This document shows positions 1,485-7,020 of a stretch of DNA of 10,410 nt, piece after piece. Under the pieces are notes generated by a model, which saw nothing but the letters and a program-made list of their open reading frames with translations, was not told the DNA's origin and did not search any database. Location: the IMG/VR virus record IMGVR_UViG_648276647_000014; one strand, 5' to 3'. The position numbers and the translations under genes are program-made. Each line of letters starts with the position of its first letter. Position 1 is the first letter of the stretch. The stretch is from a virus (lineage: Duplodnaviria; Heunggongvirae; Uroviricota; Caudoviricetes).

Positions 1485-2014
1485 GTGAAGGTTAACAAAA
1501 AGAAACTAGCTGAGATTTTTGAGCGCGATGTCAGAACAATTATTGGCTGGCAAAGTCAGGGGCTGAGGGTTTTGCCGGGAGGAGGCAAAGGTGTTGATGT
1601 TCAATTCTGCAGAAGCCATTGTGTGGCATGCGCAGCGGGAAAAAGATATCGAAAACGAAAAGCTCCGTAAAGAGCTGGAAGATTTGCGTGCGGCTGCAGA
1701 ATCTTGGCACCATTGACTATCGCTACTGGCTCACAAAAGCACAGGCTGACGCACAGGAGCTGAAAAATACCCGCGAAGAAGGACTGGTGCTGGAAACGGA
1801 ATTGTTTACCTTCATTCTGCAACGTGTGGCACAGGAGATTTTGGGGATACTTGTGCGTGTGCCTCTGACATTACAGCGTAAATATCCGGATATTTCACCG
1901 TCACACCTTGATGTGGTGAAAACTGAAATCGCAAAAGCCTCCAATGTTGCAGCTAAAGCTAGTGAGAACGTAGGCGGGTGGATTGATGATTTCAGACGTA
2001 CAGAAGGCAGTTAA
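1485..2014 (+). pseudogene. Terminase small subunit (lambda Nu1 / NohA-like) disrupted by two frameshifts
   Basis: Three consecutive frames each match lambda Nu1: about 1485-1600 ([29 protein letters not shown]), 1600-1716 ([28 protein letters not shown]) and about 1700-2014 ([21 protein letters not shown]...). A GTG or upstream ATG start is possible. Confidence 0.8.
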
Positions 2015-2247
2015 TGCAGCCGGTGCGATAGCTACAGGGCTTGTATCTTTCAATATTCCGGTACCATTGACGACAGTTCAGTAGGCTGATCAGCATTATT
2101 ATCTGCCGAAAGAGTCTTCATATACCCCCGGGCAATGGGAAACACTGCCGTTTCAGGTTGCCATCATGAACAGTATGGGAAATGACCGGATCCGTACCGT
2201 TAATCTGATTAAATCGGCGCGTGTTGGTTACACCAAAATGCTGTTGG
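1986..2247 (+). pseudogene. Terminase large subunit (lambda gpA-like), N-terminal fragment with an in-frame TAG and truncated by an IS insertion
   Basis: ATG at 1986 overlaps the Nu1 end as in lambda. Translation ..ADQHYYLPKESSYTPGQWETLPFQVAIMNSMGNDRIRTVNLIKSARVGYTKMLLG matches the gpA N-terminus. TAG at 2082-2084 sits where lambda has Trp. Homology stops at about 2247, where the IS110-family element begins. Confidence 0.75.
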
Positions 2248-3690
2248 GGGGGACCCTATTAAGTTGTCAAGCATGTTTATTACACCTGCGGGGTATAAAA
2301 AGTACCGTCACGCATCATGGCGAACAGAATGTCGCAGCGCCGTCTTGCCAGGGCGATAAGCGCCTGGTTGTGTCGTTTCCCCTGGCTCATTTTGCGTGTG
2401 TAGTAAGCCCTGGATATCGGAGCTCTGAGCGCGGCGAAGGCGGACAGGAACAGCGCCCGTTTGAGGCGTTTATTGCCCCGTCGCGAGGGATGTTCCCCAC
2501 GTATGGATGAGCCGGAGCGTCGGGTTACCGGCGCAAGGCCTGCATAAGCAGCAAGATGTGCGGCAGAGGCGAAGGCCCGACAGGCAACCTCTGTGAGGAG
2601 TCTGGCTGCGGTCCTGACACCGACTCCGGGCATGCTGGTCAGGACCGGGTAAAGAGGGTGAGCAAGAACCCGTTGCTCTACCTCAAGAGCCACTTCGTCT
2701 CTTTGCTTACGCAGCGTGATGAGCTGGAGTGCCAGGCGTGGGAGAACAACGACAGCAGCATTCGGACCGGGGACGATGACGGTTTGCTGTGTCAGTGCCT
2801 GGGTGATATCTGCAGCAAGGCGTTTTCCCTGACGGGGCGCGAGTTTGCAGAGCTGGGTTGCCAGTTTTTTCTCACCCAGTAAAGCGAGTTTTTCGGGTGA
2901 GGGATATCGCTGGAGAAGATCAAGTACTGCTGGATGATCCAGTCGCGGGCCGAGAACGCGCTCCAGAGCCGGATGTATCTGGGTCAACAAGCCGCGGATG
3001 CGGTTGCTGGCCTGTGTTGTCTGTGCGGCAAGATCATCATCGAAGCCGCAAAGCATGGAGAGTTCGGCGATTTGTTCGTCGGCCAGTTTTAGAGAGCGAA
3101 GAGCATGAGGCAGAGTACGTGCAGCTTCGGCAATGATGGCCGCATCACGGGCATCGGTTTTGGCTTCACCGGAGTGCAAGTCGGCGATGCGTCGCATTGC
3201 CAGTCCTGGAAGGTATCCGACAAGGACGCCTTCAGAGCGGGCAACGGCGACGGGTAACGCCCCGATGGTAGCAGGCTGGTCAACGACCAGTAGTATCTGT
3301 CCATGCTGTTTCAGGTCAGATATCAGCGCTTTGAGTTTGTTTTCGTCGTTGGGTAATGCTCTGTCGAACAAACGTTTACCTGAACGATTAACGGCAACGG
3401 CGTGATGGGTGTCTTTACCTACATCAACGCCAATAACGACCTGGATTGATTCGTAATCGCTGGATTCGGTCATTGTGTCTCCCTGTTTATACGGGGTAAC
3501 CAGATAACCTTGGGGAGCAGGTACCGGCATCCACGTTACAGACGGTCCCGATATGATGTCTGACCTGGCCCCTATCAGCGGTTACCAGCGCCCCACCAGA
3601 CCCGGTGACATCACCCCCCGGATCATGGACGACTGGGGGAGGTAATCATGTCGGGGCTGGCTAACACCCCATTATAAGGGGTACGAATAA
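2248..3690 (-). mobile_element. IS110-family insertion sequence (IS110-group organisation: long 5' non-coding leader, transposase, very short 3' end), inserted in the gpA terminase gene
   Basis: Bounded by gpA-homologous sequence on both sides (N-terminal fragment ends about 2247; gpA C-terminal-region homology resumes about 3691). Contains a single DEDD-type transposase gene. Boundaries are approximate to within about 10 bp; no terminal inverted repeats are expected for this family. Confidence 0.75.
2280..3473 (-). CDS. IS110-family (DEDD) transposase, apparently intact, 397 aa
   Basis: N-terminal IGVDVGKDTHHAVAV motif and C-terminal YAGLAPVTRRSGSS motif are typical of IS110-family transposases. 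The six-frame ORF extends to 3530, but the ATG at 3471-3473 is preceded by AGGGAGA 6 nt upstream, so I take that as the start. Confidence 0.85.
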   Translation of the reverse strand: MTESSDYESIQVVIGVDVGKDTHHAVAVNRSGKRLFDRALPNDENKLKALISDLKQHGQILLVVDQPATIGALPVAVARSEGVLVGYLPGLAMRRIADLHSGEAKTDARDAAIIAEAARTLPHALRSLKLADEQIAELSMLCGFDDDLAAQTTQASNRIRGLLTQIHPALERVLGPRLDHPAVLDLLQRYPSPEKLALLGEKKLATQLCKLAPRQGKRLAADITQALTQQTVIVPGPNAAVVVLPRLALQLITLRKQRDEVALEVEQRVLAHPLYPVLTSMPGVGVRTAARLLTEVACRAFASAAHLAAYAGLAPVTRRSGSSIRGEHPSRRGNKRLKRALFLSAFAALRAPISRAYYTRKMSQGKRHNQALIALARRRCDILFAMMRDGTFYTPQV

Positions 3691-4060
3691 AGTAACGGGG
3701 GGTATCTGACGGCGGACATTGACTCGCAGCGAAACCGTTTTGAGATGTATGTCTGGGGATGGGCTCCGGGAGAGGAAGCCTTTCTGGTGGATAAAATCAT
3801 CATTATGGGGCGTCCTGATGAGGAAGAGACGCTGTTACGTGTGGATGCGGCGATCAACAAAAAATACTGCCATGCAGACGGAACCGAAATGACCATTTCC
3901 TGTGTCTGCTGGGACATCGGGGGTATCGATGGTGAAATCGTGTATCAGAGATCAAAAAACACGGTGTTTTTCGGGTATTGCCGATAAAGGGGACGTCTGT
4001 CTATGGCAAGCCGGTGATCACTATGCCGAAAAAGCGCAATCAGCGCGGCGTGTATCTTGG
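3691..4060 (+). pseudogene. Terminase large subunit (gpA-like), C-terminal-region fragment, frameshifted, fused by deletion to J
   Basis: Translation GYLTADIDSQRNRFEMYVWGWAPGEEAFLVDKIIIMGRPDEEETLLRVDAAINK...[17 protein letters not shown] matches lambda gpA (..YLTAGIDSQ..RYEMRVWGWGPGEE..IMGRHD..CWDTGGIDPTIVYERSK). A frameshift near 3960 is followed by [33 protein letters not shown], still gpA-like; homology then switches to J. Confidence 0.7.
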
Positions 4061-4640
4061 TACGGCGCTGTACTGGATAGCCGCCAGTATCAATATCAGG
4101 CCGGGCCATGATTATTATTTTTATATCCGTCGTGTGAACACTGTTGGCAAATCGGCATTCGTGGAGGCTGTTGGTCAGCCGAGTAATGATGCGGCCGACT
4201 ATCTGAATTTTTATAAGGGGTTGATCAATAAAACGCATCTCGGCAAGGAGCTGCTGGAAAACTTTGAGCTGACGGAGGATAACGCCAGCAGACTGGAGCA
4301 ATTTTCGGAAGAGTGGAAAGACGCCAGTGATAAATGGAATGCTATGTGGGGCGTCAAAATTGAGCAGACCAGAGACGGCAAACGGGAATGAAACGCCGAT
4401 GTTTGTGGCGCAGGGCAACCAGATATTCATGAACGACGTGTTCCTGAAACGCCGGACGGGCGGCTTTCTGCAAAAAATGCGGATATCAGTGGCAGTGTGA
4501 ATGCGAACTCGGAGACGCCCAACAACGTCACGATAAATGAGAGCTGTACGATTAAGGGCATGCTGGAGGCGAACCAGGTCAGGGGTGACTTCGTTAAGGC
4601 TGTCTCTAAACCATTCCCGAAAAGGACCGGAACGAGGGGA
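4061..4640 (+). pseudogene. Tail tip / host specificity protein J fragments (central and C-terminal regions) with an internal deletion and frameshifts
   Basis: [34 protein letters not shown]...[39 protein letters not shown], then in other frames [21 protein letters not shown] and [26 protein letters not shown].., all matching lambda J as recalled. The segment is a few hundred bp, whereas intact J is over 1100 codons. Confidence 0.7.
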
Positions 4641-4758
4641 GGCTGGCGTGCAGTTTAACCCGACCGGAACCGTGGCCATTGATATTGCTTATGAAGGTTC
4701 CGGCAGTGGCGACTGGCGCACAGACGGTTTCATCGTGGGTGTCGGTTATAAATTCTGA
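4641..4758 (+). pseudogene. C-terminal remnant of a Lom/Ail-family outer-membrane beta-barrel protein fused to the J remnant
   Basis: Translation ends ..AIDIAYEGSGSGDWRTDGFIVGVGYKF-stop. The terminal GVGY(K/R)F and alternating-hydrophobic pattern are characteristic of Ail/Lom/OmpX-family C-terminal strands, and lom follows J in lambda. The exact junction is uncertain. Confidence 0.45.
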
Positions 4759-5230: not shown

Positions 5231-6576
5231 ATGCAGCAGAAAACGCATCGCGACCCTGATGCAGGAAGACGGGGTGAAGCCCCTGACGCCGGTTCTCAGG
5301 GGGCTGAAACCGTGCAGGCACCGACGACCAGAGAAAGTCCATCGTCAACAGTGTGGCTGATGGAAGCCATCTGCGAACCAGTCAACCTCAGGCATGCCCT
5401 GAAAAGAGTGAAGGCCAATAAAGGTGCGGCGGGAGCCGACGGCATGAGCGTAAGCGAACTGCCGGAGCACCTGAAACGCCACTGGCCGGAACTGAAAGCG
5501 CAACTGCTGTCCGGCAGCTACCGCCCATCCCCTGTAAGAAGAGTGACTATCCCGAAGCCCGGCGGCGGCGAACGCCTGTTGGGCATCCCGACGGTGGTGG
5601 ACCGCTTTATCCAGCAGGCGATGATGCAGGTGTTGCAGGCACAGTGGGATGCGACGTTCAGCGACAGCAGCTACGGGTTCCGGCCCGGACGCTCGGCGCA
5701 TCAGGCAGTGAAGCAGGCTCAGAGATACATCGAGTCGGGCTACAGCTGGGTGGTTGACCTCGATCTGGAAAAGTTCTTCGATCGGGTGAATCACGATGTA
5801 CTGATGAGCCGGATAGCGAAACGAGTATCGGATAAACGGGTGCTGTCGCTTATCCGCAGGTACCTGAATGCAGGTGTGATGGAAGCGGGTCTGGTAATGC
5901 CGGTGACAGAAGGGACGCCGCAGGGCGGCCCACTGTCGCCACTGTTATCGAATCTGCTGCTGGATGACTTCGATAAGGAACTTGAGAAACGCGGCCTGAA
6001 GTTCGCCCGCTACGCAGACGACTGTAATGTGTATGTGAAGAGTGAACGGGCAGGCAACCGTGTGATGGCGGGGCTGACGCACCGGCTGAACCGGAAACTG
6101 AAGCTGAAGGTCAACGCGAAGAAGAGCGCGGTAGCGCATCCGGAGACGCGTAAGTTCCTGGGTTACAGCTTCAGGAGGGGCAGAAAGGTGTGGTGTCGCC
6201 GGAATCGGTGAAGCGGTTCAAAACCCGGATAAGAGAACTGACGGGGCGTAACACGGGCAGAAGCCTGGAGCAGCTTATCGAACCGTTAAAGCGATATCTG
6301 ACGGGATGGAAAAGCTACTATAGACTGAACCAGTGGCAAACGCTGATGAGAGATCTGAACAGGTGGATAAGGCGAAGGTTGCGAAGTGTCCTGTGGAAAC
6401 AGTGGAAAACGGGCAGCAAGCGCTTCAAAGAGTTGCGCAGACGGGGAGTAAGCAAAGACCTTGCAGCGCAAACGGTAGGGAGTTGCCATAAGCAATGGCG
6501 GATAAGCTGTAGTCCGGCACTGAGCATAGCACTTCCCAATCGCCTGTTCGTCAGACTGGGCCTACCGGAGTTATAG
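5231..6576 (+). pseudogene. Group II intron-encoded reverse transcriptase/maturase, split by a single frameshift between the RT and maturase (X) domains
   Basis: RT motifs are present (..PKPGGGERLLGIPTVVDRF.., SYGFRPGRSAHQAV, TPQGGPLSPLLSNLLL, YADDCNVYV). The frame ends at 6211 (..FLGYSFRRGRKVWCRRNR-stop). The maturase domain continues in another frame from about 6172 (..VVSPESVKRFKTRIRELTGRN..LTGWKSYYRLNQ..) to TAG at 6574-6576. The frameshift lies about 6172-6190 and could be genuine or a sequencing error. Confidence 0.8.
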
Positions 6577-6600: not shown

Positions 6601-6672
6601 ACCGCCGTATACGGACCCGTATGTACGGTGGTGTGGGAGGAGGCTGATCGTGAGATCAGCCCCTATCCCGAT
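6601..6672 (+). ncRNA. Group II intron domain V-like and domain VI-like hairpins (3' end of intron RNA)
   Basis: Domain V candidate 6601-6632: 9-bp lower helix (ACCGCCGUA / UACGGUGGU), 2-nt bulge on the 3' strand, 4-bp upper helix, tetraloop GACC. Domain VI candidate 6635-6669: GCUGAUC-GUGA-GAUCAGC with an extended stem and a bulged A at 6665. Folded by hand, so the register may be off by a few nt. Confidence 0.5.
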
Positions 6673-6699
6673 CACAGAAAACCCCCCGCCATTCTGGAT

Positions 6700-7020
6700 A
6701 TGCTGGACCATTTTTTATGGCGGGTACACGAACCTTTTGATTTTTATCTCAGTGATGATAGCAGCGAGGTGATTGAGGTTCCCGCCGGTTTTGTTACAGA
6801 CCATGCTACGGTTCCGCGTATTTTCTGGATGATACTGCCACCTGATGGCAGATATGCCAAAGCGGCCATTATTCATGACTGGCTGTACGACAATGCGTTG
6901 CGTACCCGACAGGAAGCCGACCGGATATTCTTGGACGGAATGAAGGTACTGGGAGTGCCGCGCCGGAGGCGGATGGTTATGTACGGTGCGGTAAGACTGT
7001 TTGGGCGGGGCAAATACTGA
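6700..7020 (+). CDS. DUF1353-like phage protein (107 aa)
   Basis: Motifs ..PAGFVTDHATVPRIFW.. and ..AAIIHDWLY..R..ADRIF..GMKVLGV..R...MYGAVRLFG resemble the phage-associated DUF1353 family as I recall it. The six-frame ORF starts at 6628 inside the intron 3' domains, so I take the first ATG after the intron (6700) as the start. Confidence 0.55.
   Translation: MLDHFLWRVHEPFDFYLSDDSSEVIEVPAGFVTDHATVPRIFWMILPPDGRYAKAAIIHDWLYDNALRTRQEADRIFLDGMKVLGVPRRRRMVMYGAVRLFGRGKY

Follow-up and report, generated by a model that had tools for sequence, protein, structure and literature searches.

An amber codon at codon 33 of a large terminase pseudogene as one of many lesions in a decayed lambdoid prophage of Escherichia coli M605

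The window analysed here, a stretch of 10,410 nucleotides that holds a heavily decayed phage-21/lambda-like prophage, carries a TAG codon at positions 2082–2084 of the plus strand, where it occupies codon 33 of a gpA-like large terminase pseudogene. The source locus is in Escherichia coli M605 (GCA_000176555.2), on the 138-kb scaffold GL883905.1. The original prediction held that this amber codon was derived from a Trp codon by a single base change, and that it may have inactivated the gene early, before an insertion sequence (IS) and deletions broke it further. The locus thus raises the question of whether the stop is genuine, what it replaced and where it belongs in the decay of the gene. 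Our analysis leads us to conclude with considerable confidence that the amber codon is an inherited TGG to TAG decay lesion without function, one of a series of unselected GC to AT changes in a dead prophage.

The reading frame that contains the TAG opens with an ATG at 1986 and specifies a lambda/phage-21-type large terminase (gpA). The intact large terminase of an E. coli STEC309 prophage (638 amino acids) was used as the tblastn query, and its residues 1–88 aligned with window positions 1986–2249. Identical residues were found at 83 of the 88 positions, in one frame on both sides of the stop, which lies opposite Trp33. The predicted N-terminal gpA fragment is therefore real, and the possibility that the TAG lies out of frame with conserved sequence was considered and is not the case. 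The ancestral codon was established from alignments of four DNA and eight protein sequences. TGG or Trp was present at the aligned position in every intact homologue (7 of 7: lambda, phage 21, and E. coli STEC309, R1, 503440, CFT073 and O145:H28 RM12581), as against TAG in the window. The DNA alignment placed the G to A change at 2083, in agreement with the single substitution that had been proposed. Codon 33 of lambda gene A is TGG, within QTAVEWADANYYLPKE; this is exactly the lambda sequence that the original prediction had given, and the peptide that it had read from the window, TVQ-TAG-ADQHYYLPKE, also matches the letters exactly. Thus the site has the features of a nonsense lesion in a pseudogene, in that both flanks are conserved in frame and the sense codon of the intact homologues is one substitution away.

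The M605 source is an older draft assembly, and a sequencing or assembly error in that draft would mean that G is the true base, with Trp encoded. However, the TAG is carried by four assemblies that represent at least three samples. In addition to the NCBI assembly of M605, these are an independent Logan re-assembly of run SRR024152 (L016), which is 100% identical to the window over positions 1081–2622 (1542 bp) with the TAG included, and two ENA metagenome contigs from unrelated samples, L007 (ERZ27253670) and L015 (ERZ28664564). Both metagenome contigs contain the TAG and are 99.9% identical to the window; L015 differs from it at two positions in 2735 bp, 234 and 1412. Moreover, the change is a substitution and not an error in homopolymer length. 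A misread base is scarcely credible given this agreement among assemblies, and for practical purposes an artefact at 2082–2084 appears to be excluded. The three additional assemblies share more than the stop codon, as L007, L015 and L016 all have the IS at the same position and the same deletions in the upstream gene nu1.

The small terminase gene nu1 (1485–2014, plus strand) is itself a pseudogene. Compared with five intact homologues it lacks 5 bp at about 1597, 11 bp after 1702 and 3 bp after 1720. These deletions are private to the lineage of the window and leave the gene in three reading-frame pieces, the last 128 codons of which (1628–2014) are still labelled 'terminase small subunit (Gp1)' in GenBank. 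The gpA start codon (ATG, 1986) falls inside nu1, 29 bp ahead of its end, the nu1 stop codon being at 2012–2014.

What remains of gpA is present in three plus-strand fragments. The first, at 1986–2249, consists of codons 1–88 of the N-terminal region and is 94% identical in amino acids to the STEC309 prophage protein, with 96% identity to the R1-type gene at the DNA level. Codon 88 is followed by an IS110-family element, and codons 89–394, 306 codons that include the ATPase core, are absent. The second fragment, at 3703–3972, corresponds to residues ~395–485 of the nuclease-domain region, with 94% DNA identity to the CFT073/phage-21-type gene. Near residue 480, at about 3953–3958, contraction of an A-run from seven to six residues causes a −1 frameshift, and the third fragment (3954–4058, residues ~479–513) continues in another frame. 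Homology to gpA stops at about 4057, at residue ~513, where sequence of the tail-tip protein J takes over. N-terminal homology and the overlap with nu1 place the gene in the lambda-like gpA family (GpA_ATPase PF05876 and GpA_nuclease PF20454), and the uninterrupted open reading frame of ~640 codons with an ATPase domain is absent. The nuclease domain is also incomplete, as a precomputed PF20454 match falls on an 80-amino-acid open reading frame at 3745–3987 and residues 395–513 align at 73–86% identity. Judged by its sequence, the window copy derives from the lambda-like large terminase family but survives as a pseudogene remnant, not as a functional member. Altogether, the nu1-A remnant contains at least eight independent disabling lesions.

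The gpA pieces on either side of the IS are closest to different relatives. For fragment 1, identity is 96% with the R1-type gene and 86% with the CFT073/phage-21-type gene; for fragment 2 it is 94% with the CFT073-type gene and only 75.6% with the R1/STEC309-type gene. Either the ancestral gene was a mosaic, or pieces of two prophages were joined by recombination between IS copies.

The minus-strand IS110-family insertion sequence that splits gpA, which the source record calls ISSfl4, occupies 2250–3699. Its DNA is 87–89% identical to ISEc20 over 1454 bp. Its transposase open reading frame is intact (416 amino acids, 2280–3530, minus strand), scores 240 bits against NF033542, for which the cut-off is 140, and has PF01548 and PF02371 matches on record. 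A DEDD-type transposase that passes the curated threshold thus assigns the element to the IS110 family, in the ISSfl4/ISEc20 group. Both junctions with gpA fall in G-runs (2246–2251 and 3694–3699), with TTGGGGGGGACCC at the left and AACGGGGGGTATC at the right, so the exact ends of the element are ambiguous, including the left one within 2246–2251. No target duplication was evident at these junctions.

In L007 and L015 about 129 bp are missing within the transposase gene, at window positions ~2721–2864, between the imperfect 15-bp direct repeats GAGCTGGAGTGCCAG and GAGCTGGGTTGCCAG. The longer of the two contigs, L007, encodes a transposase shortened in frame to 373 amino acids; in L015 the open reading frame is cut by the contig end and was called at 354 amino acids. 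The gap may be a real deletion in a sub-lineage or a collapse during assembly. Because E. coli matches list ISEc20 beside split terminase genes, site-specific targeting of the terminase gene by the IS110 element was considered. This idea was ruled out, as ISEc20 lies upstream of the holin gene in RM12581 and Z1323HEC0422, and it is an IS3 element that splits their terminase genes. Comparison of IS copies provided no usable clock for dating the insertion relative to its flanks, the best full-length copies being 95.6% identical on plasmids and 87–89% identical in complete E. coli genomes.

Elsewhere in the window, the C-terminus of Rz is found at 1–312. A C-terminal fragment of J (4038–4383, plus strand) is joined directly to the gpA remnant, which means that all head genes and most tail genes have been deleted; further J sequence follows 4383, and a C-terminal fragment of Ail/Lom occupies 4537–4758. 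At the deletion junction the homology to gpA (to ~4057) and that to J (from ~4038) have about 20 bp in common, which may represent microhomology at the deletion endpoint. A search with the gpA-J junction identified no record that spans it, and none of the complete E. coli genomes shares it.

Farther downstream, a group II intron at 5231–6576 contains split reverse transcriptase and maturase reading frames. The gene is represented by two overlapping open reading frames, one of 326 amino acids (RVT_1) and one of 128 amino acids (GIIM), implying a frameshift, and the region is ~96% identical to an E. coli contig that bears ltrA. A DUF1353 gene follows at 6628–7020, and an IS3 remnant begins at 9409. 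Between them, at 8004–8972 on the minus strand, is an AT-rich orphan gene (322 amino acids, 36% GC) whose product had no match in Pfam, NCBIfam or PDB sequences. The cluster of this protein at 90% identity has three members, the exact M605 protein and two that are nearly identical to it. Genes for the exact protein are present in the M605 scaffold and in one Logan contig of SRR024152; those for the other two occur on a small number of contigs from ENA and Logan. Within a few kb of the orphan gene, the M605 scaffold (L004, 1–8500) also encodes a YopJ-family acetyltransferase (PF03421), an SLT transglycosylase and a protein of the IpaB_EvcA family. From these neighbours, the orphan may be a candidate for an uncharacterised type III secretion effector.

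We next consider the mutational setting of the amber codon. Substitutions were scored as private when five intact relatives agreed and the window differed (1485–2250, 766 bp). This gave 19 private substitutions, 14 of G/C to A/T (13 of them transitions), 3 of A/T to G/C and 2 of A to T; the relatives used for polarising are only 91–96% identical, such that some of these changes may date from the time when the phage was functional. The excess of GC to AT over the reverse is significant (14 of 17, binomial p=0.013). All 14 private substitutions at or beyond 1668, the amber change among them, are GC to AT. New bacterial mutations that have not been exposed to selection are strongly biased toward AT (PMC2936535).

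Within gpA codons 1–88 the private changes comprise four nonsynonymous (A5V, A9V, L22F and W33*) and two synonymous substitutions. This ratio of 4:2 compares with 1:10 between R1 and STEC309 and 7:28 between STEC309 and phage 21, a difference that rests on six substitutions (Fisher p ~0.03). Together with the substitution spectrum, it is the signature expected of unselected mutation, consistent with relaxed constraint on this region. Among such changes a stop codon is not unexpected in a gene free of constraint; 9 of the 130 possible GC to AT transitions in the ancestral codons 1–88 would create one. Given six GC to AT changes in gpA codons 1–88, the probability of at least one stop is ~0.35, and a nonsense codon therefore needs no special explanation. 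On the plus strand of 1485–2250 the private changes include 10 of C to T and 3 of G to A (binomial p=0.09, not significant). This asymmetry may reflect strand-asymmetric deamination of cytosine in a silent prophage remnant.

It remains to place the amber codon among the other lesions. The N-terminal ~48 residues of gpA are the segment that binds gpNu1, and a gene with a stop at codon 33 and no other damage would have lost terminase function entirely. Had gene A been inactivated first, or at an early stage, by the amber codon, with the IS, the internal deletion, the frameshift and the gpA-J deletion arriving later, the stop would have been a clean knock-out that killed the terminase by itself. 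It is also present in all known carriers and hence older than their split, which is marked by only 2 differences in 2735 bp. The IS and the three nu1 deletions are, however, common to the same carriers. Since all of the lesions occur in every known carrier, all of them predate what must have been a very recent split, and their shared distribution carries no information on their order. Moreover, at least eight disabling lesions are present in the nu1-A remnant, which sets the prior for any one of them having been first at ~0.1, and the amber codon stands among A5V, A9V and L22F, which suggests that the region was already unconstrained when it arose.

The 5,426 complete E. coli genomes, GTDB representatives and JGI metagenomes that were searched contained no intermediate allele. 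An exact-pattern scan of the GTDB representative genomes that allowed R at the variable position gave 0 matches, the TAG allele gave 0 matches in JGI metagenome contigs, and a megablast search with the 86 bp around the TAG had no match among the 5,426 complete E. coli genomes. Exact-protein look-ups for alleles with the TAG and no IS, or with the IS and no TAG, recovered only the contigs that carry every lesion (L007, L015 and L016) or unrelated TGG alleles. These TGG alleles, reached through the Nu1 protein cluster, belong to other lineages; one (L017) is intact and the other (L018) is a different and more diverged remnant with 81% identity. The proposal that the amber codon came early, before the IS and the deletions, is thus unsupported, as all four assemblies with the TAG also have the same IS and nu1 deletions and no intermediate allele was recovered. 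We consider an early amber lesion unlikely. Slightly more doubtful still is the specific scenario in which the stop came before everything else, disabling the DNA packaging of an intact phage-21-like prophage in an ancestor of the M605 lineage and locking it into the chromosome, with the IS and deletions following; if true, the amber codon would be a datable first step of prophage domestication.

That the stop is itself functional, either as a suppressible or read-through amber codon or as a selected truncation yielding a 32-residue N-terminal peptide, is highly improbable. Our analysis produced no evidence in favor of a functional stop. The IS interrupts the gene 55 codons past the stop and the whole ATPase domain is gone, the upstream partner nu1 is frameshifted, and three private nonsynonymous changes are found in the 32 codons that precede the stop. 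By far the most probable account is that the change of TGG to TAG (Trp33 to amber) is a genuine, vertically inherited nonsense mutation in what is left of the 5′ part of the large terminase gene of a decayed phage-21/lambda-like prophage, resident in E. coli M605 and in close relatives seen in metagenomes. The amber codon would have no function and would be one of a series of unselected GC to AT point mutations in the nu1-A region, which presumably accumulated once the packaging genes of the prophage were no longer under selection. We infer that the stop is part of neutral decay and not the initiating event; it is at least as likely a consequence of the decay as its cause.

For annotation, these results mean that the 5′ gpA fragment of the M605 remnant should be described as a pseudogene with an internal stop plus disruption by an IS. 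The locus has modest value in illustrating how a dead prophage decays by mutation from GC to AT, and as a caution that, where a gene is broken in many places, a nonsense codon should not be assumed to be the primary lesion.

The amber codon in the gpA remnant is a case of ordinary prophage decay, of a kind that is already known. Phage 21 gp2, lambda gpA and the intact prophage copies (WP_000622385.1 of STEC309 and WP_061336466.1 of R1) have the same gene order as the window, with the nu1 stop overlapping the start of A, and the position of the lambda Trp33 codon matches that of the amber codon exactly. In contrast to these intact terminases, the window copy has the amber codon at 33, the IS after codon 88, codons 89–394 missing, a frameshift at ~480 and the fusion to J at ~513. 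Terminase pseudogenes and deletions that run from terminase to tail genes occur commonly among the cryptic lambdoid prophages of E. coli, and the DLP12/Qin-type remnants of K-12 (nohD/nohA, aaaD) would belong to the same class. Like the window, such remnants have lost head and tail genes and acquired IS elements while retaining lysis and nu1-proximal parts. E. coli VG48B2 (NZ_CP128584.1, 1797279–1800309) also resembles the window in having a gpA-J fusion pseudogene that arose by a terminase-to-J deletion. Unlike the window, however, it has an intact nu1, TGG at the aligned codon and its gpA-J junction elsewhere. The possibility that the two share one deletion was rejected because the junctions differ, making that of VG48B2 an independent event, and comparison of the two sequences suggests that terminase-to-tail deletion is a recurrent type of decay. 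Amber (Aam) alleles of lambda gene A are classical laboratory mutations used in packaging genetics, in which a TAG abolishes the large terminase subunit. Those alleles were studied in the laboratory in otherwise intact phages, whereas the amber codon of the window is natural and lies in a gene that is already missing most of its length.
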